Source: Planctomycetota bacterium (GTDB taxonomy: Bacteria > Planctomycetota > JAJSAM01 > JAJVHW01). From it: a DNA stretch of 40,299 bases. The stretch spans positions 1 through 40,299 of the forward strand of contig JAIOPE010000161.1 in the NCBI GenBank assembly GCA_021414065.1, read 5' to 3'. A program made the position numbers and the translations under genes. The notes under the pieces are model-generated. The model made no database searches, was not told where the DNA came from, and saw only the letters and a list, made by a program, of their open reading frames with translations. Of the stretch, positions 70 to 40,299 are shown piece after piece; position 1 is the first letter of the stretch, and every line of letters begins with the position of its first letter.

Positions 70-70
70 C

Positions 71-91
71 TAGACCTCCGTGTTAGGTCTA
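71..91. promoter_or_regulatory. 7-bp stem / 7-nt loop hairpin (tagacct-ccgtgtt-aggtcta) covering the Shine-Dalgarno sequence of the flanking gene; mirror copy at 40233..40253
   Basis: Perfect palindrome read directly from the sequence; GGAGG lies in the 3' arm and the hairpin ends 2 nt before the ATG. Confidence 0.5.
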
Positions 92-139
92 TGTTAGCTT
101 GACCCTCCGACAGGCACCTGAGCGACGTGGAGAGGCCTC

Positions 140-375
140 GCCCGGATCATTCACGAAGCTCCGCGGGAGGACGGCGTGCGTCGCAGGAAGCACAAGCACT
201 TCACGCCGATTCTAGGTACGTTCGCGCCACGACACACTGTCCTGGGCGAGATCCGCGGAGTCGGCCGCAAGGCGGGACCCGCAGCGTCGGCTTTGTCAAG
301 CCACGCAAGGGTCCCGACGCAGCGGACGACCCGCGGGCTCGTCCAGGCGCGGAGCTTCGTGAATGATCCGGGCTA
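140..375 (+). repeat. Copy 1 of a ~235-bp terminal-inverted-repeat-bounded, miniature-transposon-like / structured-RNA-like element (arms gcccggatcattcacgaagctccgcg and its exact complement)
   Basis: The two 26-nt terminal arms are perfectly complementary; the ~100-nt core gagatccgcggagtcggccgcaaggcgggacccgcagcgtcggctttgtcaagccacgcaagggtccc... is shared with the copies at 4632, 37430 and 39951; TA at the right junction (374-375) forms the TAG stop of the 373..810 gene. Confidence 0.85.
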
Positions 376-810
376 GGACCGGACGGTCGCCGAGTCGGCC
401 TCGCCCACGCGCGCGCCGTCAGGCGCGGGCGCGTGGGGAGCGGCCGGGTCGAGGTCCCATCCGAACTTCTCTTTCATCATGCGCATCAGCCAAGGCACAG
501 CGACGCTCAGCGCTGCCTCTCGGATGATCGTGGACCACATCGACTGGGCCGGCGGGGGACTGCCCCTGTTCTGCGTCCCCGACCGGCTCTCGGACTTCCT
601 GGCGATGAACATCTTCACGAGCATGGCGCCGACGATCGCGCCGACGCCCGTGGACGCGACTGGGTTGTCGTGGATCATCTTCCCGAGGCCGAGTGGGTCT
701 CGGGCGTGCTCGGTGAGGCCGTCGGCCGCGCGTCGCCACTTGCGCCGAGCGACCTCTCGTTCCGCTCGGAGCGTCTCCCACTCCCGCTTCCAGTCGGTCT
801 CGTACTTCAC
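373..810 (-). CDS. DUF883/YqjD-like membrane-anchored protein (third gene of a yqjD-yqjE-like operon); GTG start
   Basis: C-terminal DNPVASTGVGAIVGAMLVKMF anchor motif resembles ElaB/YqjD proteins; GTGA start/stop overlap with the upstream gene at 807-810; the stop TAG is formed at the repeat-element junction. Confidence 0.55.
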   Translation of the reverse strand: MKYETDWKREWETLRAEREVARRKWRRAADGLTEHARDPLGLGKMIHDNPVASTGVGAIVGAMLVKMFIARKSESRSGTQNRGSPPPAQSMWSTIIREAALSVAVPWLMRMMKEKFGWDLDPAAPHAPAPDGARVGEADSATVRS

Positions 811-1247
811 GGCGCCTCGTCTCCGGGCGCGTCGCGCCCGTTGCGCAGCATCTCGACGTCGGCGTTGAACTCCGCGAGCGTCGCCGGGAATGCGAGGTCC
901 GGCGAGCTGAGTCGGCCGGTCGCGCGGACGGCGAACGCCACGCCGGTGCCGAGAGTGCCGATGCCGACGATCGCGAACGCCAGCCACTCGTCCATTCCGG
1001 TGACGTGCGCAACCAGAAGCGACACGCCGAAGAGGCTGAGCGTGAGTCCGACCGCGGCAACCAGAAGGGCGGCGACGAGAAGCGCCAGGCGGAGAACCAC
1101 CCGCTGCAGCACCACGCGCCCTTCGGACGCTGCCATCTGGGCAGTGTTGTGGGCCAGGTCCACGCCGGAATCAGCGAGTGCGCGGAGCAGTGCGAAGAAA
1201 CCGCGCTGCTCCGCGCCGGCCAGCTGCGAGGGCTCGGGCCGCTGCAT
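807..1247 (-). CDS. YqjE-like (DUF1469, holin-X-like) inner membrane protein
   Basis: Two hydrophobic helices; genome-typical GC3-rich codon usage; start ATG 5 nt after the upstream TAG; gene order DUF883-DUF1469 as in E. coli yqjD-yqjE. Confidence 0.7.
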   Translation of the reverse strand: MQRPEPSQLAGAEQRGFFALLRALADSGVDLAHNTAQMAASEGRVVLQRVVLRLALLVAALLVAAVGLTLSLFGVSLLVAHVTGMDEWLAFAIVGIGTLGTGVAFAVRATGRLSSPDLAFPATLAEFNADVEMLRNGRDAPGDEAP

Positions 1248-1252
1248 CGCTG

Positions 1253-1471
1253 CTACGACGTACGACGCCCGAGGAGGTACCCGAGGAGGGCGCCGACGCC
1301 GACGGCGACGAGGACCGACTTCACCGGGTTCTCCGAGATGTAGTCACGGGAAACCTCGAACTTCTCCTGCGTGCCGGTGACGACCTTGTCCTTGAGACGC
1401 GTTGCGGCCGCCTCGACCGTGCGAGCGCCTTCGACCAGCGCGCCATCAACTGCTGAAATGCGATCTGCCAT
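1253..1471 (-). CDS. DUF883 (ElaB/YqjD/YgaM) family ribosome-associated membrane protein
   Basis: C-terminal ENPVKSVLVAVGVGALLGYLLGRR anchor typical of DUF883; GAGGTG Shine-Dalgarno upstream of the ATG at 1471. Confidence 0.75.
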   Translation of the reverse strand: MADRISAVDGALVEGARTVEAAATRLKDKVVTGTQEKFEVSRDYISENPVKSVLVAVGVGALLGYLLGRRTS

Positions 1472-1573
1472 ACGACACCTCATTCGTTCGTTCTGTCCAT
1501 CCGACTCGGCGGAGACACTCCGCCGATCCGTGAGCGACTTCGTCTCGCGACGTCGTCCGTTCACCCACGCAGG

Positions 1574-2017
1574 CTATGACTCACCGTGTCTGCGCGCCAT
1601 GGGGTGGAACCCGACCCGGGCCTTTGCTTCGATCTCCGGCGTCGTCATCTTGTCTGCCGTCTCCACGCTGACGACGCACTTCTCGGGCACGGTCTTCTCG
1701 ATGCGCTTGCGCAGCTCGCCCTTCGCCTCTCCGGGTCCGAAGATGGCGATTGTCTGGGCACCTTGGAACGCGGCGATCACCCGGTCGTAGTACACGTCGA
1801 TCTGCGCGTTGAACTTGCGATCTCGGGAGTCGTCGTGCGGCACGTGCACGGCCTCGTGCTTGACGTTCGACCGCACGCCGTCGGTCCTTCCGAGTTGTCG
1901 TTCGACGTCCGACTCGATGATCGTCGTAGCCTCGACGTCGTTGATCAGAGTCACGACGATCGCGCGGCGGTGGTCGATCCACAGCGCCACGCGCTTTCCC
2001 TCTGCCTGATTGGTCAT
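1574..2017 (-). CDS. Conserved hypothetical cytoplasmic protein (147 aa; possibly host-attachment-like or eRF1-like, uncertain)
   Basis: Strong AAGGAG Shine-Dalgarno 7 nt upstream of the ATG at 2017; balanced amino-acid composition unlike the overlapping Arg-rich artefact ORFs. Confidence 0.75.
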   Translation of the reverse strand: MTNQAEGKRVALWIDHRRAIVVTLINDVEATTIIESDVERQLGRTDGVRSNVKHEAVHVPHDDSRDRKFNAQIDVYYDRVIAAFQGAQTIAIFGPGEAKGELRKRIEKTVPEKCVVSVETADKMTTPEIEAKARVGFHPMARRHGES

Positions 2018-2042
2018 CTGTTGCTCCTTCGGTTCACCGCGA

Positions 2043-2213
2043 CTACTTCGTCTTGATCGCTTCGCCGGCTTCCTTCACCTTGTCGCCGGTCTTGTCGAGC
2101 GCGCGGTCGAGCTTCTCGCCGGGCGTGTCGCCGCGGTTGTTGCAGGCGCACAGACCGAGACCGAGGAACGCGGACGTCAGGACGAGCAAGGCGGTCTTCT
2201 TCGTGATGTGCAT
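2043..2213 (-). CDS. Small lipoprotein (56 aa; entericidin/CsbD-like composition)
   Basis: MHITKKTALLVLTSAFLGLGLCAC signal peptide with a lipobox cysteine; GGAGA Shine-Dalgarno; it is the only plausible coding part of the 509-aa six-frame ORF 2043..3572. Confidence 0.65.
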   Translation of the reverse strand: MHITKKTALLVLTSAFLGLGLCACNNRGDTPGEKLDRALDKTGDKVKEAGEAIKTK

Positions 2214-2558
2214 GACGGACTCTCCGGATTGTGGTCCGGGGCCGACACCCGACTCATTCGGGGCCGCTCCCCGGTGCCGAGGGCGCGCCGCCGACGAGTT
2301 CGAACGGCGCCGACTCAGGTTAGACGCAGCCTGCGCCCGGTTGCCATGGGGTCGAACCCTACCTGGCCGCAGCAAGGGAGAGAGCAAGCACGTTCGCGCG
2401 CCGTGCGATCCGCTGGTCCGTCGGAAGTAGGGTTTCGCCCCATTGTTGGAATAGTCCGCCGGACCTAGTGTATGGGGCAGCGGGACCTTCGGCACGCGGG
2501 CATTCGCACTCAGCGGACGACGCACCAGCCGAACGGAGTCCTGCGATAGGAGCGCCAC

Positions 2559-2945
2559 ATGAGACTCTCGATACCAGCCGCACTTGCGGTCTGTCTTTTC
2601 ACGGCCGTCGCGTGCCAGAGCGCCACCGTCCGTGGGCCGCAGGGCCAGTCGGTCACCGCGAACGCACCGGTGTGGATGACGATCCACCGCGGCGAGTCGT
2701 CGCCCCTTGAGATCGGCATCGACCGTACGAAGTTCACGGGGCCGGTCACGGTTTCCATCTTCCAGCTCCCGAAGGGAGTCGAGTCCGACAAGGCGTCGAT
2801 CAAGGCCGAGACCACCAGCGTCACCTTCATCTTGAAGGCCTCGAAGACGGCCGACCTCGTCAGCAACCAGGCGGTCGGCATCACGGTCGAGGATCCGAGC
2901 GGGCGCCAGGCCACCCAGTTCGTCAATCTCACAGTCAACGACTGA
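2559..2945 (+). CDS. Lipoprotein (128 aa), paralog of the next gene
   Basis: Signal peptide with LFTAVAC lipobox; shares LPKGVxSDKASI / LPKGVDVVDSGSKI and overall architecture with the 2985..3392 gene. Confidence 0.75.
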   Translation: MRLSIPAALAVCLFTAVACQSATVRGPQGQSVTANAPVWMTIHRGESSPLEIGIDRTKFTGPVTVSIFQLPKGVESDKASIKAETTSVTFILKASKTADLVSNQAVGITVEDPSGRQATQFVNLTVND

Positions 2946-2984
2946 GCCCGGCTCCGGTCCCAAACAACGAGCAACGAGAACACA

Positions 2985-3392
2985 ATGAACAACAACCTCA
3001 TCGTCGCAGCATTCGCTCTCACGTTCGCAGCGTCCGCCCTTGCCGGATGCTCGAAGAGTTCGACCGTCCAGAGCGCTTCCAACGGCAAGCTGACGCTGGT
3101 CAAGCCGGCCGCCGTGACGATCTATCGCGGCGGGATGACGAAGGCGGCCGTCAAGATCCAGCGCGCGGACCTTCTCGGTGACGTCTCGATCGCGTTCACG
3201 GACCTCCCGAAGGGTGTGGACGTGGTGGACTCCGGCAGCAAGATCGTCGGCGACGAAGGCAGCTACACGCTGCGCGCCGGCGACGACGCGGCTCTCGTCG
3301 AGAACTACTCGGCGACCGTCACCGCCACGACCGGAACCGGAGGCATCGCAGTCTCCGAGCCGATCACCATCAGCGTCAAGGTCAAGCAGTAG
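2985..3392 (+). CDS. Lipoprotein (135 aa), tandem paralog of the 2559..2945 gene
   Basis: Signal peptide MNNNLIVAAFALTFAASALAGC; paralogous core. Confidence 0.75.
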   Translation: MNNNLIVAAFALTFAASALAGCSKSSTVQSASNGKLTLVKPAAVTIYRGGMTKAAVKIQRADLLGDVSIAFTDLPKGVDVVDSGSKIVGDEGSYTLRAGDDAALVENYSATVTATTGTGGIAVSEPITISVKVKQ

Positions 3393-3534
3393 GCGCCCGC
3401 GACCGCAGACAACCATGCGGTCCCGGTCGTCGGTCGTGAGCAGTGGATCGTCGGTGCGCCCCCGTTCGGCGGGTGGACCGACGGTTCGGGTTGAGTGTCG
3501 GGGGTCCGCGCGCGGCTCCGCACCAGGAGTTTCC

Positions 3535-4137
3535 ATGACGATGACGTGCCCCGGATCAGTTGTGAATTTCATCCTCGACGAGGAGCCCCATCTCCACAGC
3601 GTCGCGCGGAGGCTGACTCGATGCGAGTCCGACTCCGACGACCTGGTGCAGGAGACGCTGCTCCGGGCGTATCACGCGCGGGACCGGTTCCAGCCGGGTA
3701 CGTCGGCGCGTGCGTGGACGACGACCATCCTCCGCCGGCTCTTCCTCACCGGCGCGGTGCGTGCGAAGCGCGCCTGGATGCGGACGGACACCGACGCGTG
3801 CGGTCCGCTGGGAGTCTCTGTCGCCCGCGCGCCCGCGCAGGTTGACGCGAACTTCGAGTCGTCGCACGACCGGCCGGCGCCGGACATCCGGACGCTCGGC
3901 GACGGAATGGACGACGTCGTGAAGAACGCGCTGGATCGCGTCCCTGATGTCTATCGCACGACGTTCCTCCTCTCGGTGGTCCGCGGCATGTCGTACGAAG
4001 AGATCGGCCGACAACTCGGTGTGCCGCTCGGCACCGTCATGAGCCGAATCCACCGGGCGCGGGAGCGACTGAAGGGGGACCTCGGTCCGCACCGTCGCGA
4101 ACTCGCCGGGTCGGGCCTGCAGCGTCGCTGCAGTTGA
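3535..4137 (+). CDS. ECF (sigma-70 family) RNA polymerase sigma factor
   Basis: Region 2 (DLVQETLLRAYHARDRFQPGTSARAWTTTILRR) and region 4 (MSYEEIGRQLGVPLGTVMSRIHRARERL) motifs; AGGAG Shine-Dalgarno before the ATG at 3535; the upstream part of ORF 3178..4137 is a low-complexity artefact. Confidence 0.85.
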   Translation: MTMTCPGSVVNFILDEEPHLHSVARRLTRCESDSDDLVQETLLRAYHARDRFQPGTSARAWTTTILRRLFLTGAVRAKRAWMRTDTDACGPLGVSVARAPAQVDANFESSHDRPAPDIRTLGDGMDDVVKNALDRVPDVYRTTFLLSVVRGMSYEEIGRQLGVPLGTVMSRIHRARERLKGDLGPHRRELAGSGLQRRCS

Positions 4138-4184
4138 TCGCCGGGCCGGAAGTCGGCACTCGTCAAACTCGAAGGAGAAACACC

Positions 4185-4337
4185 ATGGGTACGCTGCTCA
4201 TTGTCATCCTCGTCCTGATGCTCCTCGGAGCCATTCCGACGTGGCCGCACAGCAAGAGTTGGGGCTACTACCCGAGCGGGGGCATCGGGCTCGTCCTGGT
4301 CATCCTCGTGGTCCTTGTCCTTGCCGGCCGGATCTGA
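4185..4337 (+). CDS. DUF3309 family small membrane protein
   Basis: MGTLLIVILVLMLLGAIPTWPHSKSWGYYPSGGIGLVLVILVVLVLAGRI matches the DUF3309 pattern; GAAGGAG Shine-Dalgarno. Confidence 0.75.
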   Translation: MGTLLIVILVLMLLGAIPTWPHSKSWGYYPSGGIGLVLVILVVLVLAGRI

Positions 4338-4482
4338 GCGAAGTCGGGGCGCGGATAGGCCCTCTGGCGGATCGGCCATGAAGGGACCTGTGCGTCAGTT
4401 TCACGGCAAGCATGTCGCCGCTCGCCTCGTGGCGGTGAGCAGCGCCTGGAAGTTCCCCGTCGGCCACGGATAGGCGGTTCCC

Positions 4483-4632
4483 ATGCTCGATACCCTGATC
4501 ATCGTCCTCGTCATCATGTGGCTGCTCGGCCTCGTCACGTCCACCACGCTCGGTGGGTTCATCCACGTGCTGCTGGTGATCGCTGTCATCGCCGTGCTGC
4601 TCCGGCTCATTCGCGGCCGAAGGGCGGTCTAG
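4483..4632 (+). CDS. lmo0937-family small membrane protein (49 aa; not in the ORF track)
   Basis: MLDTLIIVLVIMWLLGLVTSTTLGGFIHVLLVIAVIAVLLRLIRGRRAV read from the sequence; the TAG stop at 4630-4632 overlaps the first base of repeat copy 2. Confidence 0.65.
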   Translation: MLDTLIIVLVIMWLLGLVTSTTLGGFIHVLLVIAVIAVLLRLIRGRRAV

Positions 4633-4865
4633 CCCGGACAATGCACGAGGGTTCGCGTGAGAACGGCACGCATCGTAGGAAACAGAAGCACTTCACGCCG
4701 ACTCAAGGCACGTTCGCGTCGCGACACACTGTCCTGGCAGAGATCCGCGGAGTCGGCCGCAAGGCGGGACCCGCAGCGTCGGCTTCGTCAAGCCACGCAA
4801 GGGTCCCAACGCAGCGGACGGCCCGCGGGCTCGGCCAGGCGCGAACCCTCGTGAATTGTCCGGGC
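4632..4865 (+). repeat. Copy 2 of the element bounded by 26-bp terminal inverted repeats
   Basis: Arms gcccggacaatgcacgagggttcgcg and cgcgaaccctcgtgaattgtccgggc are 25/26 complementary to each other, yet differ from copy 1 at 6 arm positions, 5 of them compensated on the partner arm; TA flanks both ends. Confidence 0.85.
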
Positions 4866-5002
4866 TAGATGGGACCGAGCCGAGTCGTCGGAATCGTGCT
4901 CATCGCGGCCGGGGCGTACGTCCTCTTCACGCGCAAGTCCTAGGTAGCCGTCCAAATCACTCACCGCTCGGTTTCCCGCGCGGCCTTCCGGAGGCATCGT
5001 CC

Positions 5003-37415: not shown

Positions 37416-37429
37416 GGCCCGGATGCCTA

Positions 37430-37675
37430 GCCCGGATCATCCACGAAGCTCCGCGCCTGGGCGAGCCGGCCTCGTCGACGACTGGTCGTCCGCTGCGCTC
37501 AGACCCTTGCGTGGCTTGACAAAGCCGACGCTGCGGGTCCCGCCTTGCGGCCGACTCCGCGGATCTCGTCCAGGACCGCGAGTTTTCGTGCGAATGAGCC
37601 TCGTATCGGCGTGCATCGCAAGCCCTTCCTACGTTGCACGCCGTTCTCCCGCAGAGCTTCGTGAATGATCCGGGC
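37430..37675 (-). repeat. Copy 3 of the terminal-inverted-repeat-bounded element (inverted relative to copies 1 and 2); its right arm supplies the ATG of the downstream gene
   Basis: Arms gcccggatcatccacgaagctccgcg and cgcagagcttcgtgaatgatccgggc; core is the reverse complement of the copy-1 core; TA at both junctions; both arm mismatches become G.U pairs on the minus-strand transcript. Confidence 0.85.
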
Positions 37676-38018
37676 TAACGACGACGGCCCGCGCCCGCCG
37701 GACGCCGTGCCGCCGCCGGATGCGTACCCGGAGCTCGCGCGAGAACTGCAGTCCGCACGGCTGCACACTGCGCTCTGGCGCATCGCGCGCTGGACGGGCG
37801 CGGTCTTGCTCACGCTCGTCGCGTTGTTCTTCGGGTTCGTCCCGGGCATCCCCGGCTTTCCGCTGTTCTTCCTCGCGCTGTTCCTGATCGCGGCCGACTA
37901 TCCGCCGGCGCGGCGACTCGGCGTACGGCTCCTGCGCAAGTTCCCGCGTGTCCGCCGCGCCGTGCCGAAGCGCTGGCGTCGCACGAAGGGGCCGACGCGG
38001 AAGGGTGGTGGCGCATGA
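37665..38018 (+). CDS. PGPGW-domain small transmembrane protein; annotated ATG lies inside the terminal arm of repeat copy 3 (true start may be downstream)
   Basis: FFGFVPGIPGFPLFFLALFLIAADYPPARR resembles the PGPGW transmembrane family; TGA/ATG overlap (ATGA) with the downstream EEP gene. Confidence 0.6.
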   Translation: MIRANDDGPRPPDAVPPPDAYPELARELQSARLHTALWRIARWTGAVLLTLVALFFGFVPGIPGFPLFFLALFLIAADYPPARRLGVRLLRKFPRVRRAVPKRWRRTKGPTRKGGGA

Positions 38019-38743
38019 AGTTCCGCCTCCTCTCGTACAACGTTCACCAGTGCGTGGGCACCGACGGGCATCGCAGCGTCGAGCGAGTGGCCGACGTGAT
38101 CCGCCACTACGCACCCGACGTCGTCTGCCTCCAGGAAGTCGTCTGGCACGAGCATGACCAGCACGCACAACCGCAGCGACTCGCGCAACTCCTCGGCATG
38201 GCGCACGGCGCGGTCGGGCTCTATCGCAACCTCAAGGACGGTGCGTGGGGCAACCTGACCCTCTCGCGTTTCCCGATCGAGGAGTCCGAGACGCTCGACC
38301 TGTCGCTCCTCGTCCGCGGGAAGCGCACGCGCGGAACGCTGTACACGCACCTGCGCGTGGACCGGCGCACGCTCCACCTCTTCAACCTCCATTTCGGCCT
38401 CGCCGGGTTCGAGCGCTCCGCCCAGATCGCGCGCGTGCTCGACCGCGCCGACGAGGTTGCCCCGCACGGCGCACCCGTGGTCCTCGTGGGCGACACGAAC
38501 GACTGGCGTAACCGGCTCTGTTCGGGCGAGCTCGCGAAGGCCGGGTTCACTGCGGCGACCTGCCACGCGAAGGACCCGGGACCAGCGACGTTCCCCAGCA
38601 AGAGCCCCGTCGCCGCACTCGACAAGCTGTTCCTGCGCGGGCACGTTCGCGCGCAGCGTCACTTCGTCTCGCGGCTCGCCGACGCGACGCTGGCGTCGGA
38701 CCACCTGCCCGTGCTGATCGAGATGGAGCTCACGTCGCCGTGA
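38015..38743 (+). CDS. Endonuclease/exonuclease/phosphatase (EEP) family protein (YbhP-like)
   Basis: LLSYNV, VVCLQE, GDTND, SDHLPV catalytic blocks of the EEP fold. Confidence 0.85.
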   Translation: MKFRLLSYNVHQCVGTDGHRSVERVADVIRHYAPDVVCLQEVVWHEHDQHAQPQRLAQLLGMAHGAVGLYRNLKDGAWGNLTLSRFPIEESETLDLSLLVRGKRTRGTLYTHLRVDRRTLHLFNLHFGLAGFERSAQIARVLDRADEVAPHGAPVVLVGDTNDWRNRLCSGELAKAGFTAATCHAKDPGPATFPSKSPVAALDKLFLRGHVRAQRHFVSRLADATLASDHLPVLIEMELTSP

Positions 38744-39951
38744 GCGCGGGCTCGGACCAACTGTCCGTCCCGCGCGCGCCGCGCGGCGTGCGGGACGTCT
38801 TCCGCCGCCGCCTCGGACGTCGCATCCGCAACGCCTTCACCGTCGCCGAGGGGAACTCCATCGAGCCGCTCGGTCCGGGCTCTGCGTTCTTCACGCGCAT
38901 GGCTTCTGCGATCGACGCGGCCTGCGTCGCAGTGGACGTCGAGATGTACCTGTGGCACGACGACGAGGTGGGACACCTCTTCGGCGACGCGCTCGTGAAC
39001 GCCGTGCGACGCGGCGTGCGGGTCCGCCTGCTCGTGGACGCGCAGGGCGCTCGCGACGCGATGGGCCTGGTGAACGACGTGGGGGCGGCGGGCGCCGACG
39101 TGCGCGTGTTCAACCCATTCCGGCTCCGGGTCTGGAGCCGGTACATCCATCGCACGCACAAGAAGATCGTCGTCGTGGATGGATGCGTGGCCTACACGGG
39201 CGGCGCCGGCTTTTCGCTGCACTTCTCCGGCTCGAAGGGCGGCGAGCATCCATGGCACGACCGCATGTACGAGATCCGTGGACCGGTGGTCGCGCATCTC
39301 GAAGCTGCGTTCGAGGCCGACTTCTGGCGCTGGGACCCGAGGTGTGCGCCGTGCGACGGTCCGGATGTGACGATCCCGGTGCCGCAGGCGCCCCTCCAGC
39401 TCGGCGGCTCGCAGATACGCCTCCTGCGCGGCTGGCCCGACGCGCGCGACTTCCGACCCGTCCTGCTCGAGGCGATCCGTGCAGCGAGCGTCCGCATCTG
39501 GATCGGCACGCCGTACTTCCTCCCGCCGCACTCGGTGCGCAAAGCGCTCTACCAGGCGGCGGCGCGCGGCGTGGATGTGAGGGTGATCCACCCGTCTCTC
39601 TCGCACGCGAACTCGATCCTGTATCACGCGGTGCGCGCCCGGTACGGCCGCTACCTCCGCCTGCGCGTGCAACTCCACGAGTACGAATCGGCCTTCTACC
39701 ACGCGAAGACGCTCGTCGTGGACCGCACACTCGCGGTCGTCGGAAGCAGCAACTTCGATTCGTGGAGCTGGAAGCGCAACGCTGAGATCGACCTCGCGAT
39801 CACCGACGCGCCGACCGTCGATCGGATTGCCGCACTCCTCGACGCCGACTGGGCTTCGAGTCGACCGATCACCAGCGAAGACGCTCGCATCCGCAGCTTC
39901 ATCGCAAGCCTGCGCCAGCGTTTCTCCGAGTCGATCGAAGACTGGCTCTAA
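38740..39951 (+). CDS. clsB: Cardiolipin synthase / phospholipase D family protein (ClsB-like); GTG start
   Basis: Two HKD motifs, HRTHKKIVVVDGCVAYTGGAGF and YHAKTLVVDRTLAVVGSSNFD; GTGA overlap with the EEP gene; EEP-cls order mirrors E. coli ybhP-clsB. Confidence 0.85.
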   Translation: MSAGSDQLSVPRAPRGVRDVFRRRLGRRIRNAFTVAEGNSIEPLGPGSAFFTRMASAIDAACVAVDVEMYLWHDDEVGHLFGDALVNAVRRGVRVRLLVDAQGARDAMGLVNDVGAAGADVRVFNPFRLRVWSRYIHRTHKKIVVVDGCVAYTGGAGFSLHFSGSKGGEHPWHDRMYEIRGPVVAHLEAAFEADFWRWDPRCAPCDGPDVTIPVPQAPLQLGGSQIRLLRGWPDARDFRPVLLEAIRAASVRIWIGTPYFLPPHSVRKALYQAAARGVDVRVIHPSLSHANSILYHAVRARYGRYLRLRVQLHEYESAFYHAKTLVVDRTLAVVGSSNFDSWSWKRNAEIDLAITDAPTVDRIAALLDADWASSRPITSEDARIRSFIASLRQRFSESIEDWL

Positions 39952-40184
39952 CCCGAATCATGCACGAAGCTCCGCGCCTGGACGAGCCGGCGGGTCGCCC
40001 GCTGCGTTGGGACCCTTGCGTGGCTTGACAAAGCCGACGCTGCGGGTCCCGCCTTGCGGCCGACTCCGCGGATCTCGTCCAGGACGGTGTGTCGCCGTGC
40101 GAACGAGCGCCGGATCGGCGTGCACCGCAAGCCCTTCCTACGTTGCACGCCGTTCTCCCGCGGAGCTTCGTGAATGATCCGGGT
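39951..40184 (-). repeat. Copy 4 of the terminal-inverted-repeat-bounded element; its first base completes the TAA stop of clsB
   Basis: Arms acccgaatcatgcacgaagctccgcg and cgcggagcttcgtgaatgatccgggt; the terminal a...t pair replaces the g...c seen in the other copies; part of the window-bounding inverted repeat with copy 1. Confidence 0.85.
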
Positions 40185-40254
40185 GAGGCCTCTCCACGTC
40201 GCTCAGGTGCCTGTCGGAGGGTCAAGCTAACATAGACCTAACACGGAGGTCTAG

Positions 40255-40299
40255 ATGTTGGCTGACCAGATCCCTCTCATGCGCGATGACACCATGCCG
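40255..40299 (+). CDS. Partial 5' end (15 codons, MLADQIPLMRDDTMP...) of an outward-facing gene identical to that at 1..69
   Basis: GGAGGtctagATG, with the Shine-Dalgarno sequence inside the palindrome 40233..40253; nucleotide-identical mirror image of the window start. Confidence 0.4.
   Translation, partial: MLADQIPLMRDDTMP

Follow-up and report, generated by a model that had tools for sequence, protein, structure and literature searches.

Probable IS1595-family insertion sequences abut copies of a small palindromic repeat at both ends of a 40-kb Planctomycetes contig

How does one and the same sequence, in opposite orientations and with the start of the same gene reading outwards, come to stand at both ends of a 40-kb block of bacterial genes? 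The window (the whole stretch of DNA analysed, 40,299 nt) is the entire contig of a Planctomycetes bacterium known from a metagenome-assembled genome (MAG), and it had been noted from its sequence that composite transposons and invertible segments have this geometry. In our analysis the two inverted insertion sequence (IS) copies which that geometry calls for are very probably there, but we find no sign that the 40 kb has moved or flipped as a unit. The account that we consider probable is instead that of a complete MAG contig which ends in two inverted copies of an IS1595-family element, each lying tip-to-tip with an independent copy of a small palindromic element.

A repeat search of the window returned positions 25–376 and 39,948–40,299 as an inverted repeat of 352 nt with 92% complementarity, and base-by-base comparison found 323 of the 352 positions to be identical, in agreement with the original observation that the two ends are reverse complements. 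The right arm extends to position 40,299, where the window ends; outside the left arm there are 24 further bases. Identity is distributed very unevenly along the arms. The outer block (25–139) is identical at 115/115 positions, and the first difference falls at position 140, which is G on the left and A on the right; this is the one G/A difference that had been noted outside the element copies. The 28 remaining differences all lie within the element copy, where 134–376 is identical at 214 of 243 positions, and 21 of the 29 differences in total are concentrated in 180–246. The similarity then ends exactly at the inner tips of the element, at 376 and 39,948. Each arm consists of an inner 243 nt that is a copy of a dispersed element and an outer 115 nt that comprises a leader and the first codons of a gene, with identity stepping sharply at 139/140. 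The two arms do not form a single uniform duplication, since an identical outer block is joined to two diverged members of a four-copy family. Nor is the arm as a whole a duplication specific to the window ends: 243 of its 352 nt are a small repeat also present at 4626–4868 and 37,427–37,675, and the sole duplication of that kind is the outer 115 nt.

The inner element is a non-coding, MITE-like nested palindrome of roughly 243 nt. The repeat search and the alignment of copies place four of them in the window: c1 at 140–376 (134–376 in the family alignment; forward strand), c2 at 4626–4868 (forward), c3 at 37,427–37,675 (reverse) and c4 at 39,948–40,184 (39,948–40,190 in the family alignment; reverse). 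The outer tips of c1 and c4 abut the outer block, while c2, which has CTAG on both sides, and c3 are solo copies. The terminal inverted repeats of about 38 nt match at 89% in c1 and 97% in c2. The four copies are 73–88% identical pairwise, and c1 and c4 are the most similar pair overall (88.1%). A core of 69 nt (247–315 in c1) is nearly invariant, with 65–69 of 69 positions shared in every pair, and a variable region of 67 nt falls into two subtypes (c1–c2 57/67, c3–c4 56/67, c1–c4 46/67). Over the first 40 nt from the tip, the outer repeat matches at 38/40 for each of c1–c4, c1–c3 and c3–c4. Since c1 and c4 are in this respect no more alike than either is to the solo copy c3, they are ordinary, independent members of the element family. 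The element folds very strongly on either strand (z about −11). Its core is better conserved than its terminal repeats, which is unusual for a plain MITE. An Rfam search with the element gave nothing at the gathering thresholds and only chance-level matches at E near 10, and an exact scan of public metagenome and viral contigs with a 27-mer from the core gave no match.

The ends of the element read CTAG/TTAG and cannot be separated from its palindromic tips; the outer ends of c1 and c4 read CTCG and CTCA. We found no 8-bp direct repeat flanking any of the four copies. For c1, c3 and c4 the orthologous sites in relatives are empty, in the case of c3 at the same intergenic position in two relatives (L006 and L008). 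In three of the four copies the terminal CTAG or CTAA supplies a stop codon. The inner CTAG of c1 gives the TAG (373–375) of a 145-aa gene on the minus strand (373–810), c2 gives the TAG (4630–4632) of a 49-aa DUF5670 gene, and the inner end of c4 gives the TAA (39,949–39,951) of a PLD-family gene (38,740–39,951), whose product retains the normal C-terminus IEDWL, as in the relative L012. The element thus seems to insert at or beside stop codons and to leave the reading frame undamaged. At c3, the outer terminal repeat contains the first ATG of a 117-aa ORF (37,665–38,018; overlap 37,665–37,675). In relatives the TPR gene and a gene of 108–117 aa are direct neighbours, in this order and without an intervening element, and the insertion of c3 may have altered or supplied the start of this ORF.

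The outer block carries the start of a gene at each end. On the left, an ORF on the minus strand has its ATG at 69–67, an in-frame TAG just upstream and a GGAGG 5–9 nt before the start, and its first 23 codons (MLADQIPLMRDDTMPKTLIAFTA; 1–69) read out of the contig. On the right, the contig end cuts the gene after 15 codons (40,255–40,299, plus strand). Outward-facing gene starts are thus present at both ends, as originally described, but the full 23-residue peptide can be read on the left only. We doubled this peptide to reach the length minimum and ran an exhaustive phmmer protein search, which led to P0125, a protein of 274 aa that begins MLASQIPLMRDDTLPKTLIAFTA and matches the peptide at 21 of 23 positions. 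Two matches that scored above P0125 were rejected; they are internally repetitive proteins and artefacts of the doubling. No match came from the doubled peptide in a word-indexed protein search, from a 44-mer of the gene start in an exact scan of public genome and metagenome contigs, from a 33-mer of the leader in an exact scan of viral contigs, or from the arm compared with plasmids by blastn.

P0125 scores 155.4 bits against NCBIfam NF033547 (cutoff 75) and 53.3 bits against the Pfam family DDE_Tnp_IS1595 (PF12762; cutoff 27). Its residues 27–72 score 25.3 bits against Zn_ribbon_IS1595 (PF12760), which is borderline (cutoff 25.4), and CxxC pairs are visible there; P0125 thereby carries the DDE domain of the IS1595 family (e.g. 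ISRama1-type) together with a borderline zinc ribbon. It is 37–39% identical to annotated plasmid IS1595 transposases. Relatives of P0125 in viral contigs reach only 38–39% identity and were of no help in defining the ends of the IS. The contig that carries P0125, L013, matches the left arm without gaps at 165 of 172 positions (96%), and the matching stretch takes in 33 nt of the outer repeat of the element, the junction at the same place, the leader of 70 nt and all 23 codons. A single library fragment between adapters, L013 belongs to ENA assembly ERZ1764614. Its positions 1–70 and 962–1031 are Illumina/Nextera adapter, and the C-terminus of P0125 ends in translated adapter (…CLLYTSDAADE); adapter contamination is thus present in both the public assembly and the protein collection.

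The window holds codons 1–23, which lie upstream of the DDE domain, and the transposase domains are those seen in the homologue P0125. Since leader and 23 codons share 96% of their positions with the first part of a gene for an IS1595-family transposase, the flanking gene is very probably the start of such a gene, which bears out the earlier guess that a transposase might be found there, and it would be expected to continue as a full transposase beyond the contig ends. As its best annotated relatives are only 37–39% identical, the IS is a new, unnamed member of the IS1595 family from Planctomycetota.

A palindrome had been noted within the outer block, and it is found there as TAGACCT N7 AGGTCTA, extendable to a hairpin at about 62–98 (mirrored at 40,226–40,262; GCUAACAUAGACCU / AGGUCUAGAUGUUGGC) in which both the ribosome-binding site and the AUG are base-paired. 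The fold of the 133-nt leader has z = −2.7. Fold-back control of transposase translation is known from other IS, and the leader hairpin resembles it. No promoter-like or terminator-like sites were found in 1–450.

Where, then, does the IS begin? The ATG sits 70 nt from the junction with the element at 139/140. In two annotated IS1595 members, both with long terminal repeats, the distance from tip to ATG is 54 nt (L014) and 50 nt (L015), so that the compact layout of this type, with the ATG a few tens of nucleotides from the left tip, is found here too. The 70-nt leader (70–139, minus strand, on the left; 40,185–40,254, plus strand, on the right) is identical in both arms, has its junction kept in L013 and is presumed to be the left terminal repeat region; a second, internal copy of it occurs nowhere else in the window. 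The outer repeat of the element has its tip pointing towards the transposase gene, and for that reason cannot be the left end of an IS that contains this gene. Taken with the step in identity at 139/140 and the dissimilarity between leader and element repeats, this orientation and the tip-to-ATG layout lead us to favour an IS that would start at 139/140, tip-to-tip with a resident copy of the element. Of each IS copy 115–139 nt are then visible, and the right ends lie beyond the contig.

The same junction can also be read as lying within a longer IS, one that ends at 376 and 39,948 and has the 243-nt element for its left terminal module; c2 and c3 would then be miniature derivatives, and the arms two diverged copies of this one long IS. 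The similarity of the arms does stop exactly at the inner tips of the element, the junction between element and leader is identical in L013, and the inner repeat of each element copy is the only one oriented to serve as the left end of such an IS. We nevertheless regard a longer IS as unlikely. The variable region groups c1 and c4 with different solo copies (46/67 between them, against 57/67 and 56/67 with c2 and c3), while the adjoining leader is identical at 115/115 positions. The 70 nt from tip to ATG already fit complete IS1595 members, and the ends of the element are CTAG/TTAG without the 8-bp target duplication that is the norm in the IS1595 family. The leader is, moreover, without similarity to the element repeats (shuffle p 0.16–0.97), on which ground we also rejected the element as a miniature derivative of the neighbouring IS; a parent IS with ends matching the element was not found.

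For an IS that starts at the junction, its position relative to the element is the same each time: in all three junctions seen (c1, c4 and L013) it abuts the tip of the element at exactly the same base. Such abutment at independent copies of the element hints at targeted insertion, the IS perhaps having a preference for the tip of the element. Rather than a third independent event, L013 could represent the orthologue of the c1 or the c4 junction. We therefore offer only as a tentative proposal, with less than even confidence, that this IS1595-family element inserts site-specifically at the outer tip of the 243-nt palindromic repeat. To our knowledge, members of the IS1595 family have not been described as lying against the tips of other small repeats, and a brief literature search for IS1595 together with MITE or REP targeting found nothing specific.

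Between the repeats (377–39,947, 39.6 kb) lie ordinary chromosomal genes, as judged by Pfam scans and by colinearity with relatives. The Pfam families include ECF sigma factors, a Ser/Thr kinase, TPR proteins, an ABC-F ATPase, two M16 peptidases, a PlsC-type acyltransferase, TatA, a transglutaminase, Band 7, HAD and EEP nuclease proteins and the PLD-family protein at the right end (MCE9638153.1, locus tag K8T90_20630 at NCBI). Among about 30 ORFs scanned with Pfam, picked by eye and by GC3, there was no transposase, integrase, invertase or other recombinase inside the segment, and no tRNA genes were found. At 807–1564, genes for a DUF883 protein, a holin-superfamily-III-like protein and a small protein form a trio that is kept in the one relative found (L011) and resembles the yqjD-yqjE-yqjK arrangement of E. 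coli.

Comparison of synteny, which had been suggested as a check, covered both sides of the segment. The relatives L006 and L008 are colinear with the window over 27.9–39.95 kb, and neither c3 nor c4 is present in them. The PLD-family proteins of the relatives are 58–75% identical to that of the window, and the next gene after PLD in them is a convergent cysteine desulfurase gene, with neither element nor IS in between; one further relative (PLD 64% identical) has a different neighbour there. At the left end, L011 is colinear with 373–3392 and then continues with a different gene, again without element and IS. A search for close relatives of the PLD-family gene among GTDB species representatives returned only Bacilli at 25–27% identity. 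The impression that the cargo looks like core chromosome is thus upheld by ordinary Pfam families and by a gene order that matches relatives lacking the repeats at these sites. Because it is colinear with relatives that lack both element and IS, the 39.6-kb cargo is best read as resident chromosome, entered by the small repeats and then by the IS copies.

Why the bracket should enclose precisely the whole window is explained by the assembly. Both contig ends lie inside the repeated IS, and the bracketing reflects an assembler breaking in that repeat rather than a property of a discrete element. The assembly would have stopped there because nothing in the visible stretch distinguishes one IS copy from the other. 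That the last 115 nt are perfectly identical is then in part an effect of ascertainment, since contigs end at the point where an assembler can no longer tell copies apart. In an independent k=31 assembly of SRR15633504 the same genes are on short contigs that end inside the element repeats (347–4675 and 37,623–39,986); these breaks imply further copies of the element elsewhere.

We suggest the following order of events. Copies of the element would have inserted first, where the outermost chromosomal gene on each side has its stop codon. IS1595-family copies would then have landed tip-to-tip against c1 and c4, inverted with respect to each other and with their transposase genes facing outwards, presumably by separate transposition events. 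The assembler, unable to continue through indistinguishable IS copies, would have ended the contig 115–139 nt into the IS.

The readings that treat the 40 kb as a unit, or its ends as an error, fare less well. Two inverted copies of one IS flank the block of genes, as in composite transposons of the Tn5 or Tn10 type, and recombination between them could in principle invert the segment. That the 40 kb behaves as one unit, moving as a functional composite transposon or flipping as a programmed invertible segment, nevertheless has very little probability in our view: gene order in the cargo agrees with that of relatives without the IS, the right boundary cuts a PLD–cysteine desulfurase neighbourhood that is conserved, the internal ORFs scanned include no invertase, integrase or transposase, and a pair picked from many IS copies would be inverted in one case out of two. 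Unlike Tn5 and Tn10, the segment gives no evidence of movement as a unit, its cargo is syntenic resident chromosome and the bracket falls exactly at the contig ends. A linear plasmid or phage genome with terminal inverted repeats would equally give a 40-kb sequence with inverted ends. Here, however, a gene is truncated at both ends, after 15 codons at one and 23 at the other, the chromosomal cargo shows synteny with longer chromosomal contigs of relatives, and there were no plasmid or viral matches; a linear replicon is so improbable that we reject it on the truncated gene.

An error of assembly, or a mixture within the population, is also conceivable given that the source is a short-read MAG, that the element repeats are multi-copy and break an independent assembly, and that errors concentrate at contig ends. 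There might be a single IS copy that was misjoined through an element repeat, or strains or orientations might have been merged. Yet the right junction carries its own variant (the A matching position 140) directly beside the IS tip, and the same junction occurs in an unrelated assembly (L013). From the way de Bruijn assemblers work, a k-mer joining c4-type sequence to the IS should also exist in the reads. Taken together, misjoining or merging has little probability, and a pure assembly artefact is unlikely. We retain the account of a contig that ends in two IS1595-family copies, each against its own copy of the element.

How do the two repeats compare with known systems? The IS resembles other IS1595 members in its short leader to the ATG (70 nt, compared with 50–54 nt in annotated members) and differs from them in that every instance here abuts the tip of another small repeat. 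The element resembles bacterial MITEs such as Correia, RUP and MITEAba12 in its size of about 243 nt, its lack of coding capacity, its 38-nt terminal repeats and its several diverged intergenic copies, which are missing at orthologous sites in relatives. It is unlike them in having no parent IS that we could find, a core more conserved than the terminal repeats, and no matches in Rfam or in the public collections. IS that target small palindromes are known: IS1397 and ISKpn1 insert into REP/BIME sequences, IS621 into REP, and IS4321/IS5075 into the terminal repeats of Tn21-type transposons. All are members of the IS3 or IS110/IS1111 families and have their insertion point within the palindrome. 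The IS described here is similar in recurring at a fixed position with respect to a dispersed palindromic repeat (two junctions and L013). It differs in being IS1595-type and in lying tip-to-tip with the repeat, with a possible specificity suggested by two or three junctions.

The analysis thus identifies two unnamed repeats, one an IS1595-family element and the other MITE-like, in a poorly sampled lineage of Planctomycetes. The locus also carries a caution, in that an inverted repeat bracketing a whole draft or MAG contig usually marks a repeated IS at which the assembly broke, and not a discrete mobile or invertible element of 40 kb. If the IS does home on the tip of the element, the small repeat would serve it as a landing pad and so determine the places at which IS copies, and with them IS-mediated inversions, come about; targeted insertion, if proven, would add a new case to the IS that home on small palindromic repeats.
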